A stretch of DNA of 64,000 bases from an uncultured Bifidobacteriaceae bacterium (GTDB taxonomy: Bacteria > Actinomycetota > Actinomycetes > S36-B12), in contig CAZQXO010000004.1 in NCBI GenBank assembly GCA_964597445.1, positions 19,642 to 83,641 of the forward strand. Direction: 5' to 3'. The stretch's first letter is position 1. Every line of letters begins with the position of its first letter. Made by a program: the position numbers and the translations under genes. The notes under the pieces were generated by a model. The model saw only the letters and a list, made by a program, of their open reading frames with translations. It ran no database searches and was not told the origin of the DNA. Below are positions 2,059 to 41,956 of the stretch, piece by piece.

Positions 2059-2991
2059 TCAGGCGGGCGTCTGGGCACGCGCCGCCATGGCCTGCTCGTA
2101 CAGGCGCCCGGCGCGGTAGCTCGATCGGACGAGGGGGCCGCTCATGACACCCGTGAAGCCCAGGTCCGTCGCGGTCTCGGCGAGGTCGACGAACTCCTCC
2201 GGGCGCACCCACCGCTCGACCGGATGGTGCCGGGGCGTGGGCCGCAGGTACTGAGTGATCGTGACCAGGTCGCAGCCCGCGGCCACGAGGTCGGCCAGGG
2301 CCTCGTGGACCTCCTCGATCGTCTCGCCCATGCCGAGGATCAGGTTGCTCTTGGTCACCAGCCCCGCCGCGCGGGCTTGGGTGATCACGTCCAGGCTGCG
2401 CTCGTAGGTGAACGCGGGGCGGATCCGCTTGAACAGCCGTGGCACAGTCTCGAGGTTGTGGGCCAGGACCTCCGGCTCGGCTGCGAACACCTGCCCGAGT
2501 AGATCCGGCTCTCCGCTGAAGTCCGGAATCAGGACCTCGACTCCGGTACCGGGGTTCAGGGCATGGATGTCGCGCACGGTCTGCGCATACAGCCACGCAC
2601 CCTGGTCGGGCAGGTCGTCACGAGCAACACCGGTGACCGTCGCGTAGCGCAGGCCCATCGTGCGCACGCTCTCAGCCACCCGGCGAGGCTCGTCGACGTC
2701 CAGCGGCGCCGGACGGCCCGTGTCGATCTGGCAGAAGTCGCACCGGCGCGTGCACTGCTCGCCACCGATCAGGAACGTGGCCTCACGGTCCTCCCAGCAC
2801 TCGTAGATGTTGGGGCAGCCGGCCTCCTGGCACACGGTATGGAGGCCCTCGGACTTCACCAGCGCGTGGATCTGCGAGTACTCCGGGCCGGTCTTCAGCT
2901 TCGTGCGGATCCACTCGGGCTTGCGCTCGATCGGCACCTCCGCATTGCGCGCCTCGATCCGCAGCAGCTTCCGGCCATCGGGGCTCACCAT
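2059..2991 (-). CDS. lipA: Lipoyl synthase
   Basis: ORF 2059..3288 trimmed to ATG 2991 ([31 protein letters not shown]). Radical-SAM motif CTRRCDFC plus the auxiliary-cluster motif CQEAGCPN. Confidence 0.95.
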
Positions 2992-3644
2992 GAGACCAGC
3001 CTCCCGAGATGCCCCTCCACGACCGGCAGGATCTCCTGCACCGTGACGTCGCGCCCCAGCTCCTTGCTCAAGGTCGTGACGGAAGCGTCGGTGATCCCGC
3101 ACGGGACGATGCGGTCGAACCACGACAGGTCGTTGTCGCAGTTCAGGGCGAATCCATGCATGGTGACACCCTCGGTCACTCGCACGCCGATCGCCGCGAT
3201 CTTGCGCTCGGGACCCCGTTCGTCGGCGTCCACCCACACTCCGCTGCGACCGCAGACCAGCTTCGTCGGCACGCCGAGCTCGGCGCACACGGCGACCAGC
3301 ATGGCCTCGATGCGCCGCACGTGATCGACCACCGCCATGCGATCCGGCAGGCGCAGGATCGGGTAGCCGACCAACTGCCCGGGTCCATGCCAGGTGATCT
3401 TCCCGCCCCGATCGACGTCGATCACGGGCGTGCCGTCCATGGGCCGCTCGAACGGCTCCGTCCGGCGACCCGCGGTGTAGACGGGAGGGTGCTCGAGCAG
3501 CAGCACGGTGTCGGGGGATCGACCCGCGACCACGTCCGCGTGGAGTTCCCGCTGGAGATCCCAGGCCCGCTGGTAGTCGACCGCATCTGCGCCGAATCCG
3601 ATGCGCTCCACTGCGACGGTGGGCAGAGCCGACGGCGGGGCCAT
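2985..3644 (-). CDS. lipB: Octanoyltransferase (lipoyl(octanoyl) transferase)
   Basis: ORF 2985..3992 trimmed to ATG 3644 ([17 protein letters not shown]). Motifs [25 protein letters not shown] and PCGI. Overlaps the lipA start by 7 nt. Confidence 0.93.
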
Positions 3645-3672: not shown

Positions 3673-4938
3673 CTACCGCCTGGCGGTGAGGCGCAGGTGG
3701 GCGAGGGCGGCATCGGCGGCGCGCCGTCCACTGACCATGGCCCCCTGGATCGACGCGGTGTCGCGGTGGTCCCCGGCCACGATGAGGCCGTCCTCGAGGA
3801 CCACCGGCTTGCGGATATCGAGGGGGACCTCCATGGCCGGGAGTGCGTAGGCGATCGGGTAGGTGCCGACGAGGCCCCACCGTGCAGTGTCGACTCCGTA
3901 CATCTGCGCCAGGTGTCGGCGGACGGCGCGTTCGGTGTCAGAGTCGGCGTGACGGCCCAGGGCCGATGCCGACACCAGGGTGCGACCGCCACTCGCGTAG
4001 GACGGGGCCGCGTGGGTGAGCACCACCGTGTTGATCACCGGTCCGCGAGCTCGGCGTCCGTCGACGACGAGAACGGGTTCACCGTGCGTGAGCGCGCGGG
4101 GATCCGTGTCGGCGAGGTAGTACCACGTCGTGACGTCACGCCCGGTCGGGACGGAGAGCCCCGGAAGCAGGGAGGCCGCAGTTCGAGGGTCGGTGGCGAC
4201 GATCACTGCATCGGCCGTGACCTCGCCATGGTCGTGCCGCACCCGCCCCGCGCTGACCTGCTCGACCGGGATGCCCGTCGTGACAGTCCCGGCCGGCAGC
4301 CCGTCTCGCAGCTGCTCCGGGATGGCCTGCATGCCCTGGGCGGGGACGCTCGGCACCCCGCGCGTGAAGCTGGTGAGGACGAGGTCGAGAAAGCGTCGGG
4401 AGGTGGTGAGCCTGTCCTCGAGGAACACACCGGTGAGGAAGGGCCGGATCACGGTCTCGAGCAGTCGTGCGTCGACTCCTGCCGACAGCAGGGCCACGTC
4501 GCTCGGCATGTCCGTGCGCTCCGCACGACCGAGCGGACCGGCCTGAGCGGCGCGCCAGGCGTACAGGGCGAAGCGGAGCTTGCCCATGAGGGTGCCCGAT
4601 CGGGATGCGAGGGCATCGGTCGCCCAGGTCGGCTGGCGTCGCGGGTCCGCCAGGCGGGCAGGTCCGCGGTCGGTCAGCGCGATCAGGCCGGGAGTGAAGG
4701 GACGCAGGTCCAGCGCGTCATGATCGAGGACGCGGGCAGCCTCCGGGTAGGCCGGGTTGTACAGCTGGAAGCCGTGATCGAGCAGGAGCCCATCGATCCG
4801 ATCGGTTCGTACGCGGCCGCCGACGGACTCGTTCGCCTCGAGGACCGCGACGTCGATGCCCGCGGCCGCGAGCCTTCGTGCGGCGGCGAGGCCGGCGAGG
4901 CCGGCACCGACGATGACGACGTCGTGATGGGTCGTCAT
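3673..4938 (-). CDS. NAD(P)/FAD-dependent oxidoreductase (amine-oxidase / phytoene-desaturase-like), substrate unknown
   Basis: ORF 3673..5412 trimmed to ATG 4938 ([23 protein letters not shown]...[11 protein letters not shown]). Dinucleotide-binding fold at the N-terminus. Confidence 0.8.
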
Positions 4939-5834
4939 GACCCCTCGGCGAGCGCGGCGCGGATGGCCGACTCGATCGTGCGATCCGCGAAGGGGAAGCC
5001 GCGGGACTCGAGCACCTCGGGCATGACGCGCGAACTGCCCAGGACCTCGGTGGAGAACTCGCCCAGAACGGCCTTCAGGGCGAAGGCCGGTGCAGGAAGG
5101 ATGGTGGGGCGCCCTAGAACGCGGCCCATCGTGGCGGTGACCTCGGCGTTGGTCACGGGATCCGGGCCGGTGAGGTTGACGGGCCCGACGTAGGAGTCGT
5201 CCTCGACGAGAGCCTGCAGTGCGGTGACCTCGTCGCGCAGGGAGATCCAGGACCAGTACTGCCGGCCGTTGCCCAGCTTCCCGCCGAGCCCAGCCTTGAA
5301 CAGCGGGAACATGCGGGCCCACGCACCGCCCTTGCCCGACACGACCAGCCCGGTGCGGGGGTGGACGACGCGAATCCCCGCCGATGCCGCAGGCGCGGCG
5401 GCTGCCTCCCATGCGCGCACGACATCGGCGAGGAATCCGGTGCCTGCGGGAGCGGTCTCGTCGACCTTGCGGTCGCCGGTGTCGCCGTACCAGCCGATGG
5501 CCGACGCCGAGACGAGGACGCGTGGCTTGGGGTCGAGGGCGGTGATGGCGCGCACGATCGTGGCGGTGCCGTTCACCCGACTGTCGAGGATCTCCCGCTT
5601 GTAGTCATCCGTCCATCGATGATCGCCGACGCCGGCTCCGGCCAGATGAACGACAGCGTCAGTGCCGGCCAAGCGCACGAGGTCGACCGAGCCCGTCGTG
5701 GGATCCCACGAGATCTCATCCGCGGCCGAGGTCGGACGACGCACGAGGCGCACGACCTCATGACCTCCGGCCCGCAGGTGGGGCACGAGGGCCGAACCGA
5801 TGAGTCCTGACGCTCCAGTGACGGCGATCTTCAT
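4935..5834 (-). CDS. TIGR01777/YfcH-like SDR epimerase-family protein
   Basis: MKIAVTGASGLIGSAL Rossmann motif and a DUF1731-type C-terminal tail. 4-nt overlap with the downstream CDS. Occupies the Rv2216 position after the E2 gene. Confidence 0.85.
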   Translation of the reverse strand: MKIAVTGASGLIGSALVPHLRAGGHEVVRLVRRPTSAADEISWDPTTGSVDLVRLAGTDAVVHLAGAGVGDHRWTDDYKREILDSRVNGTATIVRAITALDPKPRVLVSASAIGWYGDTGDRKVDETAPAGTGFLADVVRAWEAAAAPAASAGIRVVHPRTGLVVSGKGGAWARMFPLFKAGLGGKLGNGRQYWSWISLRDEVTALQALVEDDSYVGPVNLTGPDPVTNAEVTATMGRVLGRPTILPAPAFALKAVLGEFSTEVLGSSRVMPEVLESRGFPFADRTIESAIRAALAEGS

Positions 5835-7666: not shown

Positions 7667-9034
7667 TCATGCGTGGGCGTGCAGGGGCTTTCCGGCGAGC
7701 GCGAGGTGTGCCTCGCCCATCGCCTCATTCTGGGTCGGATGCGCGTGGATCAGCGTCGCGACATCGTCGGGGTACGCCTCCCAGTTGACGATGAGCTGGG
7801 CCTCGCCGATCTGCTCGCCGACACGGGAGCCGACCATGTGCACTCCGATGATCGGGCCGTCGGTGAGCTGGACCAGCTTGATGAAGCCGGTGGTGGCGAG
7901 GATCTGGCTCTTGCCGTTTCCGCCGAGGTTGTACTCGTAGACGTTGACGTTGTTCCCGTGCTTCTCGCGGGCCTCCGCCTCGGTGAGACCGACGCTGGCG
8001 ACTTCGGGCTCGCAGTAGGTGACGCGCGGGATGTTGACATCGGCGATGACGGCGGGATTCATGCCCGCGATCTCCTCGGCAACGAAGATGCCGTGCTGGA
8101 AGCCTCGGTGGGCGAGCTGCAGGCCCGGGGTGATGTCGCCGACGGCGAAGATCCCCGGAACGTTCGTGCGCTGCCGTTCGTCGACGAGCACCCACCCGCG
8201 ATCCATCGCGACACCCTGCTCCTCGTAGCCCATCCCCGCGGTGTTCGGACCGCGACCGACCGCCACGAGCAGCAGGTCGGCATCGAGCTGCGTGCCGTCC
8301 TCGAGGGTGACGTGCACCCCGGCATCGTCCTGGGTGGCCGAGGCGAACCGGACTCCGAGTGAGAAGGCGATGCCCCGCTTGCGGTAGGCGCGCTCGAGCG
8401 CCTTGGAGCAGGCCTCGTCCTCGTTGGGAACGAGGTGCGGAAGACCCTCGACGATCGTGACGTCGGAGCCGAAGGACCTCCAGACGCTGGCGAACTCCAC
8501 GCCGATGACGCCACCGCCCAGGACGATGACCTTGGCCGGAACGTAGTCGAGGTTGAGGGCCTGATCGCTCGTCATGATGCGGCCGCTGATCTCCAGGCCC
8601 GGCAGGGTGCGCGCGTAGGAGCCGGTGGCGAGGACGATGTTCTCGCCGGTGTACTGCTCACCGTTGACAGTGACGGTCTTCGGCCCCGTGAGTCGCCCCT
8701 CGCCCTCGACGAAGGTGACGTTGCGGCTCTTCACGAGCCCCTGGAGGCCCTTGTAGAGGCGGCTCACCACCCCGTCGCGGTAGGCGTTCACCGCGGGCAT
8801 GTCGATGCCCTCGAAGCTGGCCCGCACACCGAAGGCCTCGCTCTCGCGCGTGCTGTCGGCGACCTCGGCCGCATGGAGGAGCGCCTTGGTGGGGATGCAT
8901 CCGCGATGGAGGCAGGTGCCCCCGAGCTTGTCCTTGTCGATGAGGATGACGGAGAGCCCGAGCTCAGCCGCACGCAAGGCACAGGCGTAGCCGCCGCTGC
9001 CGCCCCCGAGGATGACCAGATCTGCGTGCGCCAC
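7667..9034 (-). CDS. lpd: Dihydrolipoyl dehydrogenase (E3)
   Basis: ORF 7667..9082 trimmed to GTG 9034 ([16 protein letters not shown]). Redox-active [10 protein letters not shown] and C-terminal HAHPT motif. Confidence 0.93.
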
Positions 9035-11832: not shown

Positions 11833-12111
11833 ATGCCATCGGATGACGATCTTCGCCGTGCCGCTGAGAAGAGACTGCGAGCCAAAGCGACCTTCTGGCG
11901 CACGGCCCTGCTGTTCGTGATCATTTGGGCCGTGCTGGTCGTGGTGTGGGCTGTGACCGGCGCTGGTTCCTTCTGGCCGATGTGGGCCATCCTCGGAATG
12001 GGCATCGCGCTGGCGTTCATGGCTTGGGGCACCTTCCGACCAGCCAGCGGTCCGACGTCTGAGCAGATCGACGCGGAAGTCCGGCGCATGAAGGGCGACG
12101 GTCAGGGCTGA
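11833..12111 (+). CDS. 2TM-domain small membrane protein
   Basis: 92-aa ORF with charged termini flanking two hydrophobic helices (FWRTALLFVIIWAVLVVVWAV, FWPMWAILGMGIALAFMAW). Confidence 0.6.
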   Translation: MPSDDDLRRAAEKRLRAKATFWRTALLFVIIWAVLVVVWAVTGAGSFWPMWAILGMGIALAFMAWGTFRPASGPTSEQIDAEVRRMKGDGQG

Positions 12112-12869
12112 GTCTCAGCTGCGCCCGGCTCGATCAGGTCGAGCAGGGCGACGACCGTGCGGGCACCCCATCCGTCCTCGTCGGTGAGCCCCAGGGGAAG
12201 GCCCGGGGCCACGTCGATGCGCTCGCGGGCGGCCATCCGAGCCGGGTCCGTCGAGGTGGTCGCGGCTGTCCACCAGTGACGGGCCCGGTGAGCAAGGCGG
12301 TCCGCGACGAGGGCACCTGCCCACTCGTCCGTCCCATCCAGGAGGCAGGGGGTGCGGCGAGACGACGCGCCGATGAGCATGCCGGCCACGGCGGCGATGG
12401 GGGGCGTTCCCATGGCATCGAGCAGTGCGACGTGGTCGCCGAGGGACGACCGCTGCTCCGCCATGAGATCGCGGACCCCTGCGCACGCCGCCATCCACTC
12501 GACATCGGCCATGCCGGCCGGCTGATGGGTCACGGCCGACGCATCGCGCTTGGTCAGCAGGCCGATGATGCCCCGCGCCTCGAGGAGGTGTCTCTCACCC
12601 ACGCGCGGGACGAGCAGCGTGATCCCGGAGTCGATAGCCCGGTCGGCGTAGGTCAGGCCGAGGAGCAGCGCATCCACGGCGGATGACCCCGTCGCCTCGA
12701 CGACGATCTCCCGCGCCACCGGCCGCGCCTCCCCGGCTCGCTGCCTCCACCACACGTCGAGGTCACCGAGGGACCCGGTGAGGTGGGGTCGGGGGCGGTC
12801 CGGTTCGTCGGCGGGGGAGGTGATGCGGGCTATCGCCTCGCTCAGGGCCTCGGGAAGGGGTGCGCTCAT
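12102..12869 (-). CDS. Truncated, degenerate CobT-family (DMB phosphoribosyltransferase-like) paralog, function unknown
   Basis: By-eye alignment to the adjacent CobT. SLGDLDVWW aligns with ALGRLEDAAIW, ITLLVPRVGERHLL with ADILIAGDMGIGNTT, IAAVAGMLIGA with IAAMAGYLAQA, LLDGTDEWAGALVA with VLDGIVSCSAALLA, and LGLTDEDGWGARTVVALLDLI with LDLRLGEGTGALMALPLLSAA. It is about 100 aa shorter. Last gene of the riboswitch operon. Confidence 0.6.
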   Translation of the reverse strand: MSAPLPEALSEAIARITSPADEPDRPRPHLTGSLGDLDVWWRQRAGEARPVAREIVVEATGSSAVDALLLGLTYADRAIDSGITLLVPRVGERHLLEARGIIGLLTKRDASAVTHQPAGMADVEWMAACAGVRDLMAEQRSSLGDHVALLDAMGTPPIAAVAGMLIGASSRRTPCLLDGTDEWAGALVADRLAHRARHWWTAATTSTDPARMAARERIDVAPGLPLGLTDEDGWGARTVVALLDLIEPGAAETQP

Positions 12870-12905
12870 CCCTCACCCCTCGTGCTGGTCACGCGCCGAT
12901 GCCTA

Positions 12906-13679
12906 TCACGTCATGACCAGCAGGACGAGGACTCCGGCGGTGGCGAGCTCACCTGTCGCGCCCAGGGTGTCGCCGGTGATGCCGCCCAGGCGACGTCGCG
13001 CGATGATGCTGAGCGCGACGCCGGCCACCAGGCCACCGGCGATGCTGACGGCGGTGCCGAGGGCGGCCGCCGGGCCGTGGGCGCGTCCGACGGACCCCGC
13101 GAACAGCAGCGCCCATCCGAGCACCGTGAGCCACGCAGCCCACGAGGGCACGGCACCGGCCACTGTCGCCCCAAGCCCGTCCGGGCGCGCGGCGGGGAAG
13201 GCCGGCGTGCAGGAGACCGTCATGGCCACTCGGCCGATCACCACGGCGATCACCACGGCTCCGGCTCCGGCCCCGCGGTCGAGAAGGTCACCGAGGGCGA
13301 TCACCTGGAGCAGCAGGACGAGGACGAGCGTCACGACGCCGAAGGGTCCGATGTCGGAGCGTCGGGCGATCTCCAGGGCGTGGGCTGCGGGTCGACCGCT
13401 GCCGAGGGCGTCGGCGGTGTCCGCGAGTCCGTCCAGGTGCAGGGCGCGCGTGAGCCAGGCGAGCACGCTGACCGTCAGCGCGGCAGCGAGCAGGCCGGGC
13501 GTGGACGTGGCGTTGACGAGGACCTGGGCCAGCACGCCGACGATGACGGTGGGGACGAGCATCACCACGGGCCCCAGCAGCATCGCCGCGCGCGCCTGTC
13601 TCCGGCCGACTGAGGAGGGCGCGGGGACGGGGATCCGCGTGAAGGTGCCGATCGCCAGGCGCCAGCCGTCAGTGCTCAC
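12906..13679 (-). CDS. cobS: Adenosylcobinamide-GDP ribazoletransferase (cobalamin 5'-phosphate synthase)
   Basis: Polytopic membrane protein with the motifs AIGTFTRIPVP and HLDGLADTADALGS. Confidence 0.9.
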   Translation of the reverse strand: MSTDGWRLAIGTFTRIPVPAPSSVGRRQARAAMLLGPVVMLVPTVIVGVLAQVLVNATSTPGLLAAALTVSVLAWLTRALHLDGLADTADALGSGRPAAHALEIARRSDIGPFGVVTLVLVLLLQVIALGDLLDRGAGAGAVVIAVVIGRVAMTVSCTPAFPAARPDGLGATVAGAVPSWAAWLTVLGWALLFAGSVGRAHGPAAALGTAVSIAGGLVAGVALSIIARRRLGGITGDTLGATGELATAGVLVLLVMT

Positions 13680-14739
13680 GATCCGTCACCCCCGCGCTCG
13701 CGAAGGTCGCCATCTCCGCGAGGGTGGTCGCGGCCGCCGAGAGGAGCGGGAGAGCCATCAGCGCCCCGGTGCCCTCACCGAGTCGCAGGTCGAGGTCCAG
13801 GAGCGGGGCGAGTCCGAGGGAGGCCAGGGCGATGCGCGCGGCGGGCTCCGTGGACACGTGGCCGCCGATCATCCAGGCGCGCGCTCCGGGGCGTACGGCA
13901 TCGGCGAGGAGTGCGGCGCTGCAGGAGACGATTCCGTCGAGGACCATCGGCATGCCGCGCGCGGCTGCCTGGGCGAGGTACCCCGCCATGGCTGCGATGT
14001 CCGGAGACCCGACGGTGGCGACCAGGCGGAGGGGGTCGGCCACCCAGGGGCGTCCCCGCTCCATCGCGGTGGCCACAGCGCGTTGCTTTCGCAGGAGCAC
14101 CTCGTCCGTGACACCCGTGCCGCGGCCGGTGACGTCCTCGGCGGACCGGTCGGTCAGCAGGCCGATGAGGGTCGCTGCCACGGTGGTGTTGCCGATGCCC
14201 ATGTCGCCGGCGATCAGGATGTCGGCTCCCGCATCGATGGCCTCGTCGGCCAGGTCGCGTCCGAGGCTCACGGCGGTCTCGGTCTCCTGCGGACTCATGG
14301 CGTCCTCGCGGTCGATGGATCCACTGCCGCGGCGCACGCGGCGCGCGGCGATGAGCGGATCACTGTCGTCGAGGTAGTGCGCATCGGCGTCGACGCTGAC
14401 ATCGATGACGCGCATGCGGGCGCCGAACTGGCGGGCCAGCACGTTCGCGGCGGCACCGCCGGTCGCGAAGTTGGCGACCATCTGTGCCGTCACCTCGGGA
14501 GGGTAGGCGGAGGTGCCGGCTTGGCGTGCGATGCCGTGGTCCCCGGCGAAGATCACGAGGTGCGGGGATCGGAACGGATGGGGTGGGCATTGACCCTGCA
14601 CCGACGCCATCCAGATGGCGGCATCCTCGAGTCGTCCCAGAGCGCCCAGCGGCTTGGTCAGTTGCGCCTGGCGTGCTCGGGCCGCGTCGGCGGCTGCGGA
14701 GGACGGAGTCGGGAGCCCACCTGCAGGGTGCGCGCGCAC
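13669..14739 (-). CDS. cobT: Nicotinate-nucleotide--dimethylbenzimidazole phosphoribosyltransferase
   Basis: GTG start at 14739. Motifs KPLGALGRLE, FAGDHG, GDMGIGNTT and LGEGTGA. 11-nt overlap with the cobS start. Confidence 0.93.
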   Translation of the reverse strand: MRAHPAGGLPTPSSAAADAARARQAQLTKPLGALGRLEDAAIWMASVQGQCPPHPFRSPHLVIFAGDHGIARQAGTSAYPPEVTAQMVANFATGGAAANVLARQFGARMRVIDVSVDADAHYLDDSDPLIAARRVRRGSGSIDREDAMSPQETETAVSLGRDLADEAIDAGADILIAGDMGIGNTTVAATLIGLLTDRSAEDVTGRGTGVTDEVLLRKQRAVATAMERGRPWVADPLRLVATVGSPDIAAMAGYLAQAAARGMPMVLDGIVSCSAALLADAVRPGARAWMIGGHVSTEPAARIALASLGLAPLLDLDLRLGEGTGALMALPLLSAAATTLAEMATFASAGVTDREH

Positions 14740-14740
14740 G

Positions 14741-16117
14741 TCAGCATCCCTCGGTCAGGTCGAGGGTGCGGCCGGCGACGACCAGGAGCGTCCGGTCGCA
14801 GGCATCCGCCATGGCGATGTTGGCGATGCCGAGCAGGTCGCGGAAGAGACGGCCGCTCGGCGTGGCAGGCACGACGCCCATGCCCACCTCGTTCGAGACG
14901 ACGATGACGTCACGGGGATGCCGCGTGACCGCCGTGCAGAGGTCATCGATGCGCAGGCGGGCCTCGGACAGCACGGCATCCCTGTCCCCGGACTCCCAGC
15001 GGTGCCAGGCGTCGATGTCGTCGAGTTGAGCCGTGAGCCACAGGGCAAGGCAGTCGATCAGGCACGGCCCTTCGGTGTTGGACAGAACGGAGACAACGTC
15101 AGTGCTCTCCACGGTCACCCACGTGGCCTGTCGTCGTGAGCGGTGCGCGGCCACGCGAACCTCCCACTCCGGATCGTCGGGGCGCGTGCCACCGGTGGCC
15201 ACGTAGGTGACGTCGGCGTGTGTGGCGAGCAGGGACTCCGCCTGGCGTGACTTGCCGGATCGTGCGCCGCCGAGGAGAAGGGTGTGGTGCGGTGCAGTCC
15301 CGCTGGTGTCGATCGTCATGAAGTCCTCCGGAAGCTCGATGCCGATCGCTGCGAGTCGCGGCCGGAGTTCCTCGGTCGGCGGATTGTGGTGGCTGAGGTG
15401 CGTGGCGAGGACCCGTGTCGCGTCGTTGATCGATCCGTGCTGGCGCAGCGCGTCGATCTGCGTGGGCAGGGTCGCGAGATCCAGGTGACCGGTCCCGTGG
15501 TCGAGCGTGTCGCCGAAGGTCGCGTCGATGAGCACGACATCGTGGGCGACCGCCGGCAGGTCCAGGGAAGCGGGGTCGAACGGGCCGGTGTCCGTCGCGT
15601 AGAGAAGGGTTCTACCGTCGATCGCGGTGAGGGAGTAGAGCACGGCGTCGGCAGCGTGGATGTCGCCGTTGCCGTGGTCATGTCGAGCCGTCACCACGCG
15701 CATCTGGACGTCGCCCTGAGAGGTGGTCAGGGTGATCTCGTCTCCAGCGCGAACGACGTGCAGCCGGTCCTGGTCCTGCGGTGCGCACCATTCGCGGCAG
15801 AGGTCGATCGCGGACGCCGGACCCCAGACATGGAGAGGACGCGTCTCCTCGACCCAGGATCGCGTGAGCAGGAATGCCGGATGGAGGTGATCCGGATGCC
15901 CGTGGGTGATGAGCACATGCTCGACCCGCGTGAGATCCATGCTGGCCGGCACGTGTGGAGTCGTCGGGCCGCAGTCGATGAGGATGACGTCGTCGACGAG
16001 CGCCGCGCTGGGACGGCGCGCCCGTCCGGCGCGTCGCTCGGTCCCGCACGACCGGCATGAGCAGAAGGGGTTGGGCCAGCCATCCGCTGAGCCTGTGCCG
16101 AGGAGGGTCACGCGCAT
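14741..16117 (-). CDS. cobU: Fusion protein: N-terminal PhnP-like MBL-fold metallohydrolase plus C-terminal adenosylcobinamide kinase/guanylyltransferase
   Basis: ORF 14741..16162 trimmed to ATG 16117 (MRVTLLGTGSADGWPNPFCSCRSCG). The N-terminal part carries the HxHxDH motif ITHGHPDHL. The C-terminal ~185 aa carry the P-loop LLLGGARSGKS and the CobU/CobP-type motif VVSNEVGMGVVP. Confidence 0.85.
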   Translation of the reverse strand: MRVTLLGTGSADGWPNPFCSCRSCGTERRAGRARRPSAALVDDVILIDCGPTTPHVPASMDLTRVEHVLITHGHPDHLHPAFLLTRSWVEETRPLHVWGPASAIDLCREWCAPQDQDRLHVVRAGDEITLTTSQGDVQMRVVTARHDHGNGDIHAADAVLYSLTAIDGRTLLYATDTGPFDPASLDLPAVAHDVVLIDATFGDTLDHGTGHLDLATLPTQIDALRQHGSINDATRVLATHLSHHNPPTEELRPRLAAIGIELPEDFMTIDTSGTAPHHTLLLGGARSGKSRQAESLLATHADVTYVATGGTRPDDPEWEVRVAAHRSRRQATWVTVESTDVVSVLSNTEGPCLIDCLALWLTAQLDDIDAWHRWESGDRDAVLSEARLRIDDLCTAVTRHPRDVIVVSNEVGMGVVPATPSGRLFRDLLGIANIAMADACDRTLLVVAGRTLDLTEGC

Positions 16118-16118
16118 G

Positions 16119-16967
16119 TCAGGACCCGGAGGGTGGGGCGGCCACGAACTCCGGTCGGGCATGGAACGCGGCCTTGCGTGCCATCCGGCGCAGGGCGAGC
16201 AGGATCGGACGTCCCGCCACCCAGATCAGGACGACCGTGAGCAGCGCTCGAGGGATGTCGTAGCCGAGTGATGTCACGAGGGAGAAGCGGATCCACGAGA
16301 GAAGGTTCTCCGGCATCGTCGCGCCCGCGGTGAAGGCGAGCTGCTCGGGAAGGGAGTCGAGGAAGGGCCAGAACCACAGGTTCATGAGAAAGCCGTAGGC
16401 GATGCAGGCGACCGCGGCGTAGATCGACAGGGCGAGGATCTCGCGACGCCCCGACCACCGCGACGGCAGGAGCCCGGCCCCCAGGCCGACCCACGCCGCC
16501 GCGAGCATCTGGAAGGGCAGCCAGGGTCCGACGCCACCGGTGAGCAGGGCCGACGCGAACAGGCCGATCGCCCCGAGGGCGAAGCCGAACCCGGGTCCGA
16601 GAGCGCGGGCGCCGAGAATGAGGATCACCCAGATCGGCTCCAGGCCGGCCGTGCCGCCACCGAGCGGTCGCAGCGCGGCGATGACGGCGCTGAGCACTCC
16701 CAGCATGGCGATCGCCTTCGCATCCATGCCGCCGTCACTCATCTGGGCGAGCACGACGATGAGCAGGACGGGAACGATGAGGGCGAAGAGGAGTGGTGCA
16801 TCCGTGGCGTGCGCGACGGCTGCGGACCCGGGCGCCGCGACGAGGGGCCAGATGAAGGCGACGAGGCCGATGGCCGACGCGACGCCGATCGCGATGCGTG
16901 ACGCGGGACCGAGTCGCACCGCGTGCGTGGTCACGGGGGTGGTGGAGGCCGGCAGGAGTGCTGTCAT
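16119..16967 (-). CDS. Putative ECF-transporter substrate-capture (S) component, unusually large (about 8 TM)
   Basis: 282-aa polytopic membrane protein directly after EcfT and EcfA1A2 with 4-nt and 1-nt junctions. The S-component assignment rests on context only. Confidence 0.55.
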   Translation of the reverse strand: MTALLPASTTPVTTHAVRLGPASRIAIGVASAIGLVAFIWPLVAAPGSAAVAHATDAPLLFALIVPVLLIVVLAQMSDGGMDAKAIAMLGVLSAVIAALRPLGGGTAGLEPIWVILILGARALGPGFGFALGAIGLFASALLTGGVGPWLPFQMLAAAWVGLGAGLLPSRWSGRREILALSIYAAVACIAYGFLMNLWFWPFLDSLPEQLAFTAGATMPENLLSWIRFSLVTSLGYDIPRALLTVVLIWVAGRPILLALRRMARKAAFHARPEFVAAPPSGS

Positions 16968-18586
16968 CCGACAGCCTCGGAATCCTGCAGCGCGTCTGCC
17001 ACCTGTTGGACCGTCAGCCAGGAGCCCGGAGCCAGGATCTTCGCGACCTGCGGTGCGAACATCGGGGACGCCGTCACCACGTGCGATGTCGGGCCGTCGG
17101 CCACGACCTCGCCGTCCGCCAGGATGATGACCCGGTCAGCGATCTCCGCCACGAGTTCGACGTCATGCGTCGCCAGCACGATGGTGTGTCCTGCGTCCGC
17201 AAGGTCGGCGAGGATGCCCGCAAGGCGTGCCTTCGTCGGATAGTCCAGCCCACGGGTGGGCTCATCGAGCAGGAGGAGCGGCGGACGCGCTGCGAGGATG
17301 ATGCAGAGGACGAGCAGCAGCCGCTGCCCCTCGGACAGGTCCCGAGGGTGAGCGCTGTCGACGATGTCGGGTGCCATGAGCGCGAGGAGCGCGCGGGTGG
17401 TGCCGAGATCCGCGCCCGCGTCACGGTCGGAGATCCGGCACTCCTCCGCAATCGTGGTGGCCTCCAGCAGGTCTGCCGGCTCCTGCGGCACGAGCCCGAC
17501 GGAGTGGAGCAGGCTCGCGCCGGTGAGTTCCCGGGGATCGGCCTCGCCGATCCGGACGGTGCCCGACGGGCGCGGGCCGACCCCCACGAGCGCGTGGAGC
17601 AGAGTGGACTTTCCCGCACCGTTGCGGCCCATCAGCGCCACGATCTCACCGGGATGTGCGGTCACGGACACATGGGAGAGCGCAGTAGCAGAGCCGTAGC
17701 GAACACTGACGTCGTCAGTGGTGACGAGCGGTGGGGCGGCGTCACGCACCGCACGCAGTCGCGGCTGCTGGCCGACGAGAAGATCGCGCAGGGATCCCGC
17801 GGCGCGCCGCGCATCGCGAACGGACAGGGGGAGAGGCTGCCACCCGGCCAGTCGGGCCAGTTCGACGACGGGAGGAGCGATCGGTGCCGTGCGCATCATC
17901 TCCGCCGGTGGGCCGAACGAGACCGGTCGCCCGTCGCCGGGGACGAGCAGCACCTGGTCGGCGTACTGCACGACCCGCTCGAGTCGGTGCTCGGCCATGA
18001 CGACGGTCACGCCCAGGTCATGCACCAGTCGCTGCAGCGCCGCGAGGACTTCCTCCGCGGCACCGGGGTCGAGGGCAGAGGTGGGCTCATCGAGCACTAG
18101 GACCCGCGGATGTGCTGCCAGCACCGCGCCGATCGCGACCCGCTGCCGCTGGCCCCCGGAGAGGGTGCGCAGTGCGCGCTGCCGGATGTCGGCAAGTCCG
18201 AGCAGGTCGAGAGTCTCCTCCACCCGTCGACGCATGACGTCCGGAGCAAGGCCGAGGCACTCCATCCCGTAGGCGAGCTCGTCCTCGACGGTGTCGGTCA
18301 CGAAGCTGCTCATCGGGTCCTGAGGCACGACCCCGACCAGGTCGGCCAGCTCCCGAGGTGGGTGGCTCGCGGTGTCGCGTCCATCGACGGTGATGCGCCC
18401 GGTCAGTGTGCCGCCGGTGAAATGGGGCACGAGTCCGTTCATCGCGCGCAGGAGAGTCGTCTTGCCGCTGCCCGTGCGTCCGACGACGAGCACGAGCTCG
18501 CCCTCGGGAATCCGCAGGCTCACGTGATCGAGCGTGGGTCGGACCTGACCGGGGTAGGTGATGCTGACGTCGTCGAACACGATCAT
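16964..18586 (-). CDS. ECF/ABC transporter ATPase with duplicated ATP-binding domains (EcfA1-A2 fusion, CbiO-like)
   Basis: ORF 16964..18832 trimmed to ATG 18586 (MIVFDDVSITY). Walker A GRTGSGKTT and GRNGAGKST, with signature motifs LSGGQRQR and LSEGQRLL. Confidence 0.9.
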   Translation of the reverse strand: MIVFDDVSITYPGQVRPTLDHVSLRIPEGELVLVVGRTGSGKTTLLRAMNGLVPHFTGGTLTGRITVDGRDTASHPPRELADLVGVVPQDPMSSFVTDTVEDELAYGMECLGLAPDVMRRRVEETLDLLGLADIRQRALRTLSGGQRQRVAIGAVLAAHPRVLVLDEPTSALDPGAAEEVLAALQRLVHDLGVTVVMAEHRLERVVQYADQVLLVPGDGRPVSFGPPAEMMRTAPIAPPVVELARLAGWQPLPLSVRDARRAAGSLRDLLVGQQPRLRAVRDAAPPLVTTDDVSVRYGSATALSHVSVTAHPGEIVALMGRNGAGKSTLLHALVGVGPRPSGTVRIGEADPRELTGASLLHSVGLVPQEPADLLEATTIAEECRISDRDAGADLGTTRALLALMAPDIVDSAHPRDLSEGQRLLLVLCIILAARPPLLLLDEPTRGLDYPTKARLAGILADLADAGHTIVLATHDVELVAEIADRVIILADGEVVADGPTSHVVTASPMFAPQVAKILAPGSWLTVQQVADALQDSEAVG

Positions 18587-19704
18587 GCGACCACCTCCGC
18601 GCGTTCCCTCGTCGGCTGCGTCGTGACCCGGCTCGCGAGGGGAAGGGGAGGGGACGTCCAGGCGGGTGTGAGTGCGACACCGAGGGCCAGCACGGCGACC
18701 CACGGCAGAGTGGGCCAGGCGGGAGGATCGACGGTGGCGTCCATGCCCGGCACGCCCAGCCACCCCGCGGCCGCGAACGCTGCTGCGGTCACCGCGCCGG
18801 CCCCGGCGACTGCCCACTCGGGTGCCCGCCACGGATCCGGTCGGTAGCGGGTGCGCACGCGGGTTCGCCCGGCGCGCAGCACCGCGACCATCGTGGTCAG
18901 CGTCCCGAGGGCCATCATCGGCAGTCCGAGGTACGCGGGGGAGTCGGGGGAGACGAGGCCGAACACGCCGATGCAGGAGGCGACGAGGCCCGTCAGGAGC
19001 ATGAGCGACGTCGTGCGCCGCTCGCGCACGGTGATGTCACCGCGTCGTCCGTAGCCGCGGGAGTCCATGGCTGCGGCGAGTGTCACGGATCGCTCGAGGG
19101 CGCCCTCGAGGACGGGGATGGCCGAGCCTGCCAGCGCGCGCATTCCCGTGCTGCTGCGTCCTCGCAGTCGACGAGCGGTGCGGAGCCGTTCGACGTCGGC
19201 GACGAGCTGCGGGGTGAAGGTCAGGGCGACGACCACGCTGACGCCCAGCTCGTACAGGGCTGCGGGCACCGACTTGAGCAGTCGGGTCGGCGATGCGAGC
19301 GAGTTCGCTGCTCCGACGCACACGAGGATCGTGGCGAGGCGCAGTCCGTCGTAGAAGGCCATCAGGAGTGATTCCGCCGTGACGCTGCCCCCGAGACGGA
19401 TCCCGGCGAGCCACGCGGGCAGGTCGACCCCGGGAAGGTCCACAACCGTGGTGGTGCCGACCGATGCTCCGAAGATCACTTGGACTGCAACGCGAATGAC
19501 GATGACGACGAGGCCGAGCTTGAGGAAGAAGCCGAACGAGCGACCCCAGGGCTCCTGCGGTCGTCGGGCCTGGACGACGAGGGCCGCGACCCCGATGAGG
19601 AGGACGAGGAGCAACGGGTTGGTCGTGCGGCTGGCAGCCGCGGCCATGCCCAGTGCCCAGACCCACCAGGCGCCCGGGTGCAGCCATCGAGCATCGCGGG
19701 TCAT
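18583..19704 (-). CDS. ECF transporter transmembrane (T) component (CbiQ/EcfT family) with extra C-terminal TM extension
   Basis: ORF 18583..19728, likely starting at ATG 19704 (MTRDARWLHPGAWW, ATGA overlap with the upstream stop). CbiQ-like core including ARRLRG/ALERS-type coupling helices, then about 100 extra residues with 2 TM helices. Confidence 0.8.
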   Translation of the reverse strand: MTRDARWLHPGAWWVWALGMAAAASRTTNPLLLVLLIGVAALVVQARRPQEPWGRSFGFFLKLGLVVIVIRVAVQVIFGASVGTTTVVDLPGVDLPAWLAGIRLGGSVTAESLLMAFYDGLRLATILVCVGAANSLASPTRLLKSVPAALYELGVSVVVALTFTPQLVADVERLRTARRLRGRSSTGMRALAGSAIPVLEGALERSVTLAAAMDSRGYGRRGDITVRERRTTSLMLLTGLVASCIGVFGLVSPDSPAYLGLPMMALGTLTTMVAVLRAGRTRVRTRYRPDPWRAPEWAVAGAGAVTAAAFAAAGWLGVPGMDATVDPPAWPTLPWVAVLALGVALTPAWTSPPLPLASRVTTQPTRERAEVVA

Positions 19705-20450
19705 GAGCGCCTCCGGCGACGGAGCCACACGTACTGGAGCGCGCCGATGGCGAGCACGAGGATCACGGCCAGTGACGCGACGGGGGATCCGGTCGACCCG
19801 GACACCTCACCCTCGGGTGCCTCGCCGCCGGTGCCGGCATTGAGAGCCGAGCCCGGGGTGTCGAGCAGGAGCCCGGGGGTGAGCGCATCGTCGGGTCCTG
19901 CGGCGGCCGCCGCGACGTCGGCGTCGTCGAGGATCGGTGCGCATTCTCGGGCGGGGTAGCCGCCCAGGCCGCACACGAGTCCGTTGTCCGTCCGCACCTC
20001 GAGGACGCTCCGGAGGACGTCGTAGGCGGTCGCGTCCGCTTCCGTCACGATGCACTCCGCACGCTGGTCGATCGGCGTCTCGCCGTCGGGGGCGATTCCC
20101 GGCGTGCCCGGGTCGATGATCAGGGCGATCCGCTTGGTGCCGTCGGTGGCTGCTACGCCACTGCACACGTCGGCGAAGTCGGGAGGCATGGACGGAGCGG
20201 CCTCTGCCGCACCCGAATCCGAGCTGATGGCGAAGCTCCAGCCCTCGACCGATCCGTCCTCGGGGACGGCCGTGGCGGGACCCTGCGTGGCGAAGGTCCA
20301 GTCCGTCTCTTCCGGACCGGCCTGCCAGTACGTCCAGAAGCGATACGCGGACGCCTCGGCGGGAGCGGCGAGGGCGGTCGCGAACGCACCGAGCAGCAGG
20401 ACCGACATGGCCGGCCCCGCTGCTCGGTGACTCACGCGCGTCCTCGCCAT
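19701..20450 (-). CDS. Exported, C-terminally membrane-anchored protein (SCO2322-family-like), function unknown
   Basis: Signal peptide (MSVLLLGAFATALAAPAEASA), a Trp/Tyr-rich module (YRFWTYWQAGPEETDWTFA...VEGWSFAI), a 4-Cys module, a low-complexity linker, a TM helix and an RRRRRS tail. The family name is from memory of annotations and was not searched. Confidence 0.6.
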   Translation of the reverse strand: MARTRVSHRAAGPAMSVLLLGAFATALAAPAEASAYRFWTYWQAGPEETDWTFATQGPATAVPEDGSVEGWSFAISSDSGAAEAAPSMPPDFADVCSGVAATDGTKRIALIIDPGTPGIAPDGETPIDQRAECIVTEADATAYDVLRSVLEVRTDNGLVCGLGGYPARECAPILDDADVAAAAAGPDDALTPGLLLDTPGSALNAGTGGEAPEGEVSGSTGSPVASLAVILVLAIGALQYVWLRRRRRS

Positions 20451-20454
20451 CGGA

Positions 20455-21510
20455 CTAGCGGCGCATCGAGGAGGACAGGGTCGTGACGAGGTTGACCCCG
20501 CCGAACGACGTGGGCCTCGCTCCGGTCGCCTCGGCGACCATCAGCAGCAGCCCTGCTGCCCCGGGGCTCCCGGACGCGTAGGTGCCCGCGTTGGCCTTCA
20601 GTGCCGCTGTTCCGCGTGCGATCGCAGCGCGACCCTCGCGGGCGAGGCTCAGGCCGAGGACGGCGTAGGCCGTCGAGGCGTAGTCCGGGCCGCCCATGGA
20701 TGAGTCCAGCACTCCTGACCTCGACAGGTTCGAGGCGAGGTAGCTGATCCCCTTCGCTCGAGCAGTGTTCGCGCAGGCCGCAGAGGCACCCGCGGCAGGC
20801 TGGCGGGTGACCGGCAGGGAGCCCGTGATCCCGAGGACGCCCTGCGACGTCGCGAGGCCGTCGGGCCGGCTGCCCGGCTGGTAGGCGAAGCCGCCGCCGC
20901 TGGCGCAGGAGGAGGCGGTGCTGCCCAGGAAGCGCATGGCCTCGCGGTAGGGCGACGATCCGAGATTGCCACCCCACGTGTTCGCGGCCGCGAGGGCGAG
21001 TCCGGTGGAGTTCGCGTCGGAGGCTCCCCCGGGGAAGTACGGCCAGCCGCCATCGGCGTTCTGCTGCTGACGGATCCATCGCCCCGCTGCCTCGGCGGCA
21101 TCCACGACCCTCGAGAGCTGTGCCGGCTTCAGGGTGATCCTGCTGTCATCGAGGGCCATGAGGGCCATCAGTGCCATGGCCGTGCTGTTGGTGTCGGGTC
21201 CGGTGTAGGTGGCGGGGTCCGGGGACGCGCACGGCTCCGACGTGGTGGGTCGGTAGTCCTCGAAGGATCCATCGGCGCACTGCTGGCGCAGCAGCCAGGA
21301 GACGGCGGCCGCAGGAGGGGTGATCTCGTGTGCGGTCAGGCCCAGGAGGCCGAGAGACTGGCGGAAGACCCCGTCGTATGTGGGGTCCGACGCCCCGTAG
21401 AGGCCGGCGTCGGGCGTGGCGGCCGCAGCCGTGCCGACTCCGGTGGACAGGGCTGCCGTGGCGCTGATGAGGGCGACGGCGGCGCGCCGGCGCACCAAGG
21501 TGCGAAGCAT
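20455..21510 (-). CDS. Exported prenyltransferase/squalene-oxidase-repeat (alpha-alpha toroid) protein
   Basis: RR-containing signal peptide (MLRTLVRRRAAVALISATAALSTGVGTAAAA). Repeats LRQQCADGSFEDY, IRQQQNADGGWPYFPG and ASGGGFAYQPG. First gene after the B12 riboswitch. Confidence 0.75.
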   Translation of the reverse strand: MLRTLVRRRAAVALISATAALSTGVGTAAAATPDAGLYGASDPTYDGVFRQSLGLLGLTAHEITPPAAAVSWLLRQQCADGSFEDYRPTTSEPCASPDPATYTGPDTNSTAMALMALMALDDSRITLKPAQLSRVVDAAEAAGRWIRQQQNADGGWPYFPGGASDANSTGLALAAANTWGGNLGSSPYREAMRFLGSTASSCASGGGFAYQPGSRPDGLATSQGVLGITGSLPVTRQPAAGASAACANTARAKGISYLASNLSRSGVLDSSMGGPDYASTAYAVLGLSLAREGRAAIARGTAALKANAGTYASGSPGAAGLLLMVAEATGARPTSFGGVNLVTTLSSSMRR

Positions 21511-21555
21511 GGGTGCCTTTCAGGTGAGCGGTGCCGGATCAGGGGGCACGCATCC

Positions 21556-21592
21556 TGAAAAGCGCGATCCCCGCAGCGCGGGCGCTGCGGGG
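21556..21592 (-). terminator. Intrinsic terminator forming the riboswitch expression platform
   Basis: The minus strand reads CCCCGCAGCGC-GG-GCGCTGCGGGG followed by ATCGCGCTTTTCAGG. It lies 45 nt upstream of the ATG at 21510, which has GAAAGG as SD. Confidence 0.7.
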
Positions 21593-21800
21593 AGCATGGG
21601 TCAGGACCCGAGCTCCCGTCCCGTTACCTCGACGGATGGAGCCGCTCGCGTTCGCCAGGTGCTCCGACTCTCCCCGGTTCAGGGCTGGGCCCTGACGTGG
21701 GAACACGGTTGCGGGACAGCGCCGGATTCGCACCGGACTTCCCCTGGACGTCGAACGAGTGGTGTTCAGTTGTGGGGGCATCCGACCACGGGGCGCATAC
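21556..21800 (-). promoter_or_regulatory. Cobalamin (B12) riboswitch, aptamer plus terminator
   Basis: The minus strand contains CAGGGGAAGTCCGGTGCGAATCCGGCGCTGTCCCGCAACCGTG, matching the conserved GGGAA..GGTG..AA.TCC..GCTG.CCCGCAAC.GT core. A B12-box-like GAGTCGGAGCACCTGGC sits at 21654-21671. The 5' boundary is approximate. Confidence 0.85.
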
Positions 21801-21830
21801 CCGTGTCAAAGGTTTCGGGCATCGGGTGCG

Positions 21831-22037
21831 TCACCCCTCGGGATGGAGTCCCATGGGGCCGTAGACCTCCCGCTGCTCCTCGAGGAGCACGACCTGATGC
21901 ACCCCGGAGTCGAGGAGGTCCCTCCAGCTCTCGCCGATCCACGTCTCGGCGTCGGACTGCGAGGGGAAGGACTGAGAGCAGCCGGATCCCACCGGCGACC
22001 CGTCCGATGCCTCGAGGCGCCAGAACCACTGGCTCAT
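21831..22037 (-). CDS. Small conserved hypothetical protein (68 aa)
   Basis: MSQWFWRLEASDGSPVG...WIGESWRDLLDSGVHQVVLLEE. High GC3, and a 4-nt overlap with the stop of the upstream DUF3043 gene suggests translational coupling. Confidence 0.5.
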   Translation of the reverse strand: MSQWFWRLEASDGSPVGSGCSQSFPSQSDAETWIGESWRDLLDSGVHQVVLLEEQREVYGPMGLHPEG

Positions 22038-37701: not shown

Positions 37702-38367
37702 TCACCTGAGGACGTAGATCATGAAGAACAGGGCGATCCAGACCACGTCGACGAAGTGCCAGTAGTACGAGGTCACGATCGCGCGTGTCGCCTGGTCGTG
37801 GCTGAAGCGTTTGACGACGTACGTCGTCGCCAGGACGAACAGGAAGGCGATCAGGCCGCCGAGGACGTGGAGGCCGTGGAAGCCCGTCGTCAGGTAGAAG
37901 GCCGTGCCGTAGGCGTCGCTCGACAGGGTCAGACCCTTGTGGACGAGTTCGACGTACTCCGTGACCTGGCCGGCGATGAAGACCGCGCCCATGACAAAGG
38001 TGATGATGAACCAGCGCCGCAGCCCCTTGACGTCCCCGCGCTCGGCGGCGAACACGCCGAGCTGGCAGGTCACCGAGGACAGAACGAGAATCGTCGTGTT
38101 GATGCTGGCGAACGGGATGTTGAGGAGTTCCGTCTGCGTCGCCCATACATCGGGGTTGACGGCTCGGAGCGTGAAGTACATCGCGAACAGGGCCGCGAAG
38201 AACATGAGCTCGCTGGAGAGCCACACGATCGTCCCGATCGCCACCATGTTGGGGCGGTTGGCCGGGGCGTGGGCGTATGCCTGAGGGATCTGTGTTGCTT
38301 GGGCCACAAGGGGAGTCTGGCAGATGGGCATGCCCTCCGCTCCCGGACCCCCCGAGGGATCGGTCAC
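37702..38367 (-). CDS. ctaE: Cytochrome c oxidase subunit III
   Basis: [25 protein letters not shown] and the HGLHV motif. The start is uncertain (38367, or ATG 38331). Confidence 0.9.
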
Positions 38368-38405
38368 ATTCGCCCCGAGATGCTGCCCCGACTAGAGTGA
38401 GGGCC

Positions 38406-41901: not shown

Positions 41902-41956
41902 GATCCCGACCGTAGGCGCACCGTGTGACAGGGCGTGGCATCGGTAGGCTCGTGGC

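Follow-up and report, generated by a model that had tools for sequence, protein, structure and literature searches.

How Gram-positive Actinomycetota acquire vitamin B12 at very low concentrations is poorly understood, for Streptomyces as well as for the Nanopelagicales (acI), the most abundant freshwater bacterioplankton, and a review states that an energy-coupling factor (ECF) type B12 system is not known in mycobacteria (PMC12713380). The question is raised by a locus in a 64-kb stretch of contig CAZQXO010000004.1 from an uncultured Bifidobacteriaceae bacterium (the whole stretch is called the window from here on; it is actinobacterial DNA with a G+C content of ca. 70%), where nine open reading frames (ORFs), named P1 to P9 in gene order, lie at 12102-21510 of the minus strand, on the same strand as a riboswitch: what does this gene set do, and is it one system? 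Our answer, to which we give a probability of roughly 0.75, is that the locus is a cobalamin-repressed operon, in which an ECF corrinoid importer of the CbrTUV type (group I) is joined to nucleotide-loop assembly enzymes. The original prediction for this DNA saw one self-contained module; instead, two units of different age are found, the importer cassette being a stand-alone unit in Streptomyces and in Nanopelagicales.

In order, the genes encode an exported toroid protein (P1), a SCO2322-type protein (P2), the ECF components EcfT (P3), EcfA-A' (P4) and S (P5), a CobU fused to a metallo-beta-lactamase (MBL) domain (P6), CobT (P7), CobS (P8) and a degenerate CobT paralogue (P9). Pfam and NCBIfam bear out all nine family assignments made originally (Table 1), with P1 scoring under the SCO2321 equivalog cut-off, and the ORF boundaries and all junction lengths are identical to those first listed. 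The leader hairpin region ends 45 nt ahead of the first gene, whose ATG is at 21510, and the junctions from P1 to P9 then measure +4, -4, -4, -4, +1, +1, -11 and +36 nt. With no junction longer than 36 nt the intergenic gaps leave no room for internal promoters or terminators, and a consensus scan of 11.5-22.5 kb gave no promoter-like or terminator-like sites; a TTGACA hexamer is located at 21804-21809 of the minus strand, without a matching -10 element.

The leader of this gene set is a cobalamin-clan riboswitch, the single one that had been predicted. An Rfam scan of the whole window (cmscan, gathering thresholds) yields a sole match, RF01689 (AdoCbl-II, clan CL00101), at 21649-21757 of the minus strand, scoring 40.4 bits (cut-off 36.5; E=3.4e-6). 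The scan gives the best match per clan, so that the check first proposed, a hit to RF00174, is answered in part: the clan is the expected one, but the family given is RF01689 and RF00174 itself is not among the matches listed. Our own covariance model R1 scores the window aptamer 99.9 bits. In 50 distinct homologous leaders, 96.7% of the cells pair at the 14 core pairs to which the covariation test was confined, against 85.2% in shuffles; none of 500 shuffles reaches the observed value, slid controls reach at most 69.5%, and compensatory (double) changes occur at seven pairs. A weak second match of the covariance model (8773-8874, plus strand; 17.9 bits, E=0.003), which does not appear in the Rfam result, lies inside the lpd coding sequence and was taken as chance.

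Downstream of the aptamer, the leader shows a fold z-score of -3.07, a 3' extension that does not vary among related loci, and several recognizable elements. A GAGCGG box (21642-21647) stands just after the aptamer, while the complementary ACCGCUC box (21526-21532) adjoins the Shine-Dalgarno (SD) sequence AAAGG (21516-21520), and both boxes are invariant in nine aligned leaders. A 10-bp GC hairpin (21569-21592) is followed after 7 nt by UUUU (21558-21561); it is found in six of the nine leaders, with compensated variation, and is missing in three. The terminator that had been read here is hence only partly confirmed, because the hairpin and its UUUU are present but the consensus terminator scan does not call it and a third of the leaders are without it. 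We suspect that sequestration of the SD contributes to the control. At low intracellular cobalamin the leader would permit transcription and translation; probably the ACCGCUC box near the SD is released from, or made available to, the GAGCGG box, and in some lineages a terminator hairpin would take part.

The distribution of the gene set was followed by scanning one genome per species with an alignment of the SCO2322 family. Relatives are encoded in at least 571 species genomes, and the locus points to a riboswitch-controlled ECF importer in as many. Eighty loci were fetched, with P2 as bait throughout, from Streptomyces, Terrabacter, Nanopelagicales/Planktophila and many actinobacterial metagenome-assembled genomes (MAGs), five more were fetched later, and gene content was determined by tBLASTN with the nine window proteins. 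Rfam finds RF01482, RF01689 or RF00174 upstream in seven out of seven diverse loci. A covariance model built from these matches detects the riboswitch in 75 of the 80 loci, the remaining five being cut off upstream (hence 75/75), and also in the five later ones; each positive locus has exactly one, which lies on the coding strand directly ahead of the first gene of the cassette. The order P2-EcfT-EcfAA'-S is present in all 60 loci with enough downstream sequence, and nearly all shorter loci have its first genes. P1 lies directly upstream in 49 of 74 loci and is missing from acI/Planktophila- and Terrabacter-type loci. The riboswitch, the toroid protein where present, the SCO2322 protein and the ECF module are an old, widespread and conserved actinobacterial unit. 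Co-occurrence of all nine families behind the riboswitch, which was to be surveyed according to the original prediction, thus stands for P2 and the ECF genes, but not in full for P1, nor for the CobU/T/S tail, which belongs to certain lineages.

Concerning the substrate of the importer, the S component is most informative. As a single sequence P5 finds no solved relative among the PDB sequences. A profile of 50 homologues gives one match in 177,635 PDB sequences, 6FNP_A (E=1.7e-4 over 120 residues, a specific though weak match), and no other solved chain at E<=10. Chain A of 6FNP (182 residues, labelled 'Membrane protein') is, we infer, the CbrT of the Lactobacillus delbrueckii ECF-CbrT complex, which binds and transports both cobalamin and cobinamide (PMC5997447). 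The streamlined freshwater Nanopelagicales/Planktophila loci keep the cassette without a CobU or CobS tail, and this retention supports import of the finished cofactor, because nothing else would be useful there. Taken together, the CbrT-only profile match, the universal riboswitch control and the retention in these streamlined loci make corrinoid import the best-supported predicted function of the transporter, in line with what had been proposed.

A different substrate, such as cobalt or, as with CblT, 5,6-dimethylbenzimidazole (DMB) or alpha-ribazole, with P1 and P2 serving that substrate, is a very improbable alternative. Cobalt and lower-ligand transporters are also found under B12 riboswitches (PMC8123684), the operon contains a CobT, and the specificity of an S component is unreadable from sequence. 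On the other hand, the S-component profile finds CbrT and no other solved chain, P5 has no significant Pfam match to CbiM or CbiN, and the cassette also stands in loci devoid of any loop-assembly genes, where import of cobalt or DMB would be useless for B12 supply.

The ECF proteins themselves are a dedicated set, EcfT, two ATPase domains and the S component being encoded together by genes that overlap by 4 nt, as in group I (dedicated-module) systems. The fused ATPase reaches ca. 288 bits with both TIGR04520 and TIGR04521, under their equivalog cut-offs of 315 and 330. The arrangement of S component, EcfT and two ATPase domains in a B12-related context is shared with ECF-CbrT of L. delbrueckii (6FNP; Santos et al. 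2018, PMC5997447) and with the predicted CbrTUV systems (Rodionov et al. 2009, as cited in PMC8123684 and PMC6593275). ECF-CbrT, however, is of the shared type (group II) and consists of CbrT plus the ECF module, whereas the window has a dedicated module (group I) with a riboswitch at the head of the operon, adds the two extracytoplasmic proteins P1 and P2, and carries an S component 100 residues longer as well as the C-terminally extended EcfT. ECF-type B12 importers had been considered as known from Firmicutes; this is correct for the characterised ECF-CbrT, but dedicated-module importers (CbrTUV) had already been predicted outside Firmicutes, to judge by the passages of PMC8123684 and PMC5997447 that cite Rodionov 2009. 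With regard to naming, the window module combines a fused duplicated ATPase with a dedicated T component. Such a combination matches what we take to be the description of CbrU/CbrV.

Residues 56-242 of P3 align with solved EcfT proteins (265-280 aa), and additional hydrophobic segments lie at 231-316. The extension (residues ca. 243-373; window 18583-18980, minus strand) has three hydrophobic segments and no solved counterpart, and the EcfT of a Streptomyces locus (L081) is 452 aa long. The anchored partner protein could dock onto this extension.

The second unit, the CobU/T/S tail, is lineage-specific, and is found in a neighbourhood (DUF3043 ... gcvT-pepA-lpd-sucB) common to several lineages. 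Importer and tail are joined in at least 13 loci, down to ca. 54% identity of the MBL::CobU protein. The nine-gene order recurs in a similar neighbourhood in four loci (L082-L085, with L084 having eight genes, without P9), whose MBL::CobU is 54-61% identical to that of the window, and it is present also in L001, L002, L006, L007 and L036. Since the arrangement recurs in independent genomes whose proteins are ca. 50-60% identical, it is far beyond chance. Among the variants, four loci are without P9, Terrabacter-type loci keep CobS, and Nanopelagicales-like loci have a CobT-like gene alone after the cassette, which in two MAGs is degenerate and fused to GcvT. In the latter (L017 4580-7000 and L022 7466-9886) an 806-aa ORF has the degenerate CobT in frame with GcvT after the ECF cassette, with GIGNT changed to GPGSQT and the catalytic Glu to Asp; since both copies align without a gap over 706 aa at 85% identity, the ORF is unlikely to be an artefact of assembly. 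L082 (12542-15372) is otherwise syntenic with the nine-gene form, but its ECF genes are split into called fragments of 127, 257, 94 and 110 aa; this suggests that either assembly errors introduced frameshifts or the importer is decaying in this genome.

Such a distribution could be read as juxtaposition without integration, in which the cassette came to lie upstream of a resident cobU-cobT-cobS set serving ordinary de novo or late-step synthesis, with no dedicated logic of salvage and remodelling. The stand-alone five-gene cassette of Streptomyces and of 38 of the 54 loci with enough downstream sequence speaks for this, as do the common neighbourhood of the tail and the Nanopelagicales-like loci with just a CobT-like gene after the cassette. 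Against it, P5 and P6 are separated by +1 nt and the joined arrangement persists over the divergence given above; in all cases inspected, MBL::CobU and P9 stand in no other operon context; the vicinity contains no corrin-ring genes; and a tail under riboswitch control is a functional integration in itself. We consider juxtaposition improbable, although it carries more weight than the other alternatives. The nine-gene form appears to be an ancient importer cassette that became transcriptionally joined to resident loop-assembly genes in one actinobacterial clade.

It should be noted that several points weigh against a cobalamin-repressed operon uniting importer and loop assembly. Promoters may exist within coding sequence. 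In Streptomyces, which are B12 producers, the five-gene cassette is sited elsewhere and has no CobU/T/S tail, and as the tail belongs to a shared neighbourhood, its co-transcription with the importer could be a historical accident and not functional design. The CbrT link of P5 is weak, P1 is dispensable in one third of the lineages, and neither P1 nor P2 resembles known B12 binders in Pfam or Foldseek comparisons.

Table 1. Elements and genes of the riboswitch-headed operon, with the evidence for each assignment.
Feature	Position	Strand	Evidence
Cobalamin-clan riboswitch aptamer	21648..21762	-	Rfam; own covariance model
Riboswitch 3' extension and expression platform	21511..21647	-	Sequence reading, fold z-score, leader alignment
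P1, secreted alpha/alpha-toroid protein (SCO2321-like), 351 aa	20455..21510	-	PF00432, PF13249 (Prenyltrans/SQHop toroid), NF053823
P2, SCO2322-family protein, 249 aa	19701..20450	-	NF040672, 155 bits (cut-off 85); PF28005
P3, EcfT, 373 aa, ca. 130-aa C-terminal extension	18583..19704	-	PF02361 (CbiQ family), 35.6 bits (cut-off 25)
P4, fused duplicated ECF ATPase EcfA-A', 540 aa	16964..18586	-	Two PF00005 domains, 190 bits
P5, ECF S component, distant CbrT relative, 282 aa	16119..16967	-	PF12822, 37.1 bits (cut-off 30.7)
P6, PhnP-like MBL domain (residues 1-ca. 275) fused to CobU (residues ca. 278-458)	14741..16117	-	PF12706 (Lactamase_B_2), 68 bits; PF02283, 161.7 bits
P7, CobT (NaMN:base phosphoribosyltransferase), 356 aa	13669..14739	-	TIGR03160, 396 bits (cut-off 319)
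P8, CobS (cobamide-5'-phosphate synthase), 257 aa, polytopic	12906..13679	-	PF02654, 143 bits
P9, truncated, catalytically degenerate CobT paralogue, 255 aa	12102..12869	-	PF02277 (DBI_PRT), profile positions 132-312 only

Concerning the loop-assembly genes, CobU, CobT and CobS score as true members of their families, as first assigned. The CobU part of P6 covers the full-length PF02283 profile and has 147 bits with NF004469 (cut-off 161); P7 shows the GIGNT and GEGTGA motifs and the catalytic Glu of a CobT; and P8, with multiple hydrophobic segments, has 102 bits with TIGR00317, slightly under the cut-off of 110. The ECF complex would import cobalamin, cobinamide or other cobamides, CobU would convert cobinamide to cobinamide-GDP, CobT would make alpha-ribazole-5'-phosphate, and CobS would join both. 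The CobU-CobT-CobS(-CobC) pathway of Salmonella enterica likewise has these three as true family members, but the window differs from it in four respects: there is no CobC-type histidine phosphatase, CobU carries the PhnP-like MBL domain, there is an extra degenerate CobT, and the loop genes share one predicted transcript with the importer. Pfam and NCBIfam scans of the called ORFs of the window detect no CobC, CbiZ or CbiR, inside or outside the operon.

The MBL domain of P6 has an intact PhnP-type phosphodiesterase fold. The protein has the motifs CSCRSC at residue 19 and HGHPDH at residue 72, and the P-loop GGARSGKS at residue 283; in 28 diverse homologues HxHxDH, the further His/Asp ligands, CxCxxC and the CobU P-loop are all invariant. 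In PhnP, the CxCxxC motif serves as a structural Zn site. Among solved structures the MBL part is closest to PhnP (3G1P, profile E=1.8e-12), RNase Z and Apyc1, and all three are phosphodiesterases. We call the domain PhnP-like, and not PhnP, because its 42 bits are far under the TIGR03307 equivalog cut-off of 272. The fusion is common, with at least 120 protein clusters, and the best 120 (51-96% identity) are all two-domain proteins annotated just as CobU.

What the MBL domain does is, together with P9, the most speculative part of our proposal. It could be a phosphodiesterase that cuts the nucleotide loop of unsuitable imported cobamides, giving cobinamide-phosphate (Cbi-P), which would feed the fused guanylyltransferase, i.e. 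the chemistry of CbiR on a different fold. Alternatively, it could supply the missing CobC-type final phosphatase. The loop phosphodiesterase is slightly favoured over the CobC substitute, since fused enzymes as a rule catalyse successive steps and the members of this fold family are diesterases. CbiR of Akkermansia muciniphila hydrolyses the phosphoribosyl bond of cobamides to yield Cbi-P, the substrate of the CobU guanylyltransferase (Mok et al. 2020, PMC7733943). A domain of phosphodiesterase fold attached to CobU would suit this reaction. The likeness to CbiR and CbiZ is one of functional analogy only: CbiR falls into the AP endonuclease 2 superfamily and CbiZ acts as an amidohydrolase, whereas the window domain has the MBL fold of PhnP, RNase Z and Apyc1. 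Remodelling of incomplete corrinoids, as read into this locus originally, is plausible in so far as it fits a PhnP-like MBL domain fused to CobU.

P9 scores 69.5 bits with TIGR03160, far from the cut-off of 319, and is not a CobT in its motifs either: ca. 80 aa of the base-binding lobe are deleted, PRVGxR replaces GIGNT and Asp replaces the catalytic Glu. These features, together with family-specific invariant residues, are kept in seven of seven orthologues (44-69% identity), and an exhaustive search gives a family of ca. 250-aa proteins with 22 representatives at E<1e-30. Both a pseudogene and an active CobT were rejected for P9, as the family is conserved, with invariant residues of its own, and is devoid of the catalytic motifs. 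Among solved proteins it matches ArsA best, one half of the ArsAB heterodimer of two CobT homologues from Sporomusa ovata (4HDK), and the window also has two CobT-family genes in one cobamide locus; ArsA and ArsB, however, are full length (348 and 350 aa), whereas P9 has lost part of its base-binding lobe, GIGNT and the Glu. Our guess is that P9 is a non-catalytic, CobT-derived partner subunit. In L003 (14238-15026) a gene of the P9 family comes right after the S component in an operon that lacks CobU, CobT and CobS; this arrangement hints that the role of P9 may be tied to the importer or the corrinoid and not to CobT.

The two exported proteins are the remaining components. P1 has a signal peptide and no membrane anchor, while its Streptomyces homologue has a C-terminal one. 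With 218 bits against the 300 of the SCO2321 equivalog NF053823 (profile positions 8-352 of 405), it appears to represent a related, anchorless subfamily. Its AlphaFold2 (AF2) model is a single alpha/alpha toroid of ca. 320 aa with a mean predicted local confidence (pLDDT) of 89.9, and four cysteines are invariant in the family. Foldseek neighbours are generic, with TM-scores of ca. 0.5: drimenyl-diphosphate synthase, squalene-hopene cyclase, prenyltransferase beta subunits and complement thioester-containing (TED) domains. A terpene cyclase, a prenyltransferase or a thioester protein were each rejected for P1, an exported single-domain protein in which such motifs are missing. The exact P1 protein of the window has no record in the contig index.

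P2 is built from a signal peptide, an aromatic-rich Cys4 domain of ca. 140 aa with invariant C96, C133, C160 and C170, a low-complexity linker, and a C-terminal transmembrane helix followed by RRRR. PF28005 is recorded on all 61 homologues. The AF2 pLDDT is 83.8 overall and above 90 for the ca. 140-residue domain, for which Foldseek finds no fold match in the PDB (best E 0.38). The C-terminus (19701-19800, minus strand), with G-[ST]-P-x-A-[ST], a hydrophobic helix and RRRR, resembles a protein-sorting signal; the Pfam model of the LPXTG anchor has weak matches in 4 of 58 P2 homologues (best E 0.006), and the segment could be a processed anchor instead of a plain transmembrane helix.

Given that P1 and P2 are linked to the ECF genes behind the riboswitch, that P2 overlaps ecfT by 4 nt and that both are exported, they probably act as accessories of the importer. 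Outside the membrane, the exported toroid and the tethered P2 would capture corrinoids or hand them over to the S component. The invariant cysteines of the two families, both exported, suggest disulfide bonds.

Instead, P1 and P2 might be envelope proteins with an unrelated job, e.g. a toroid that binds isoprenoids or glycans, or a pair that remodels the envelope, merely sharing the B12-regulated transcript. The fold relatives of P1 are only terpene cyclases, prenyltransferase beta subunits and complement TED domains, P2 has no recognisable fold relatives, and P1 is missing from 25 of 74 loci, all of which would suit such a job. A complete ECF set nevertheless follows P2 in 60 of 60 loci with enough downstream sequence, P2 overlaps ecfT by 4 nt in the window and lies behind a riboswitch everywhere; the DxDD (cyclase) and CGEQ (thioester) motifs occur in none of the 49 P1 homologues; and the exported pair with its conserved cysteines is also at odds with this alternative, which we judge unlikely.

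A split transcobalamin, with P1 as the alpha6/alpha6 barrel and P2 as the beta domain (DUF4430), was considered and rejected. Cobalamin_bind (PF01122) and DUF4430 (PF14478) match none of the 49 P1 and 58 P2 family members at E<=1 (107 homologues in all), and transcobalamin-type structures are absent from the best 50 Foldseek PDB matches of P1 and from the 18 matches of P2. The alpha domain of transcobalamin is an alpha/alpha barrel. An analogous sandwich mode of B12 binding by P1 and P2 would be pure speculation. With BtuG/BtuH of Bacteroides (PMC8941943), BtuF and transcobalamin (alpha6/alpha6 barrel plus beta domain) the analogy is conceptual, in that extracytoplasmic proteins accompany a B12 importer behind a riboswitch, but neither P1 nor P2 matches any of them in sequence or fold.

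Two further claims can be made jointly: that the SCO2322 protein, with the toroid where present, is a new class of surface corrinoid capture for ECF importers, and that MBL::CobU is a third, structurally new cobamide-remodelling enzyme that yields Cbi-P. We put this forward as a tentative idea, possible but rather to be doubted than expected as a whole. If true, it would run counter to the rule that ECF importers do without extracytoplasmic binding proteins.

The B12 riboswitch, the ECF corrinoid importer and the CobU/T/S core are already known as such. For P1, P2, the MBL::CobU fusion and P9 no description was found in the literature searched, an earlier mention being possible, in keeping with the first statement that four components (P1, P2, the MBL domain and P9) have no described role. 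Of these four, the SCO2322-type protein P2 is an obligatory partner of the importer. The importer always comes with one extracytoplasmic partner that has no fold match in the PDB, and often with a second; these proteins are candidates for a new mechanism of B12 capture. For uncultured Actinomycetota, MBL::CobU and the degenerate CobT family offer leads either on the absent CobC step or on the remodelling of cobamides, and thereby on how vitamin cross-feeding is modelled for lakes and soils.

Regarding the surroundings, the 3' end of P9 overlaps by 10 nt a convergent gene for a protein with two transmembrane segments (2TM), and gcvT is next; upstream of the leader there is a DUF3043 gene with a small conserved ORF ending at 21831. 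This ORF (21831-22037, minus strand) encodes 68 aa, shares an ATGA stop/start overlap with the DUF3043 gene and has no Pfam family. It is found at the same position in L082, L083 and L085 with 45-61% identity, W4, W6, F24, P25, W33, W38 and a YGPM motif being invariant. The housekeeping genes of the window include glnA, sucB, lpd, pepA, gcvT, pspA, nadA, ctaCDE, qcrCB and trpD, and we take the cobT-cobS genes of Mycobacterium tuberculosis to be sited in the corresponding housekeeping region. Pfam and NCBIfam scans of the called ORFs in the 64-kb window, five of which have no family match, found no corrin-ring synthesis gene, as stated in the original prediction, and no CobC-type phosphatase or B12-dependent enzyme.

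The five ORFs with coding-like third-position G+C content (GC3) and no Pfam match (E<=1e-5) are 2563-3324, 3697-5193, 35993-36415 and 38277-38936 on the plus strand and 50688-51122 on the minus strand. Some may be miscalled frames, for example 35993-36415, which lies at the position expected for qcrA. Finally, 40081-43107 (minus strand) encodes a 1008-aa protein whose N-terminal ca. 400 residues fall outside the best NCBIfam models, and whose C-terminal ca. 600 aa match the DEDD exonuclease / GIY-YIG (UvrC-like) family PRK07883.

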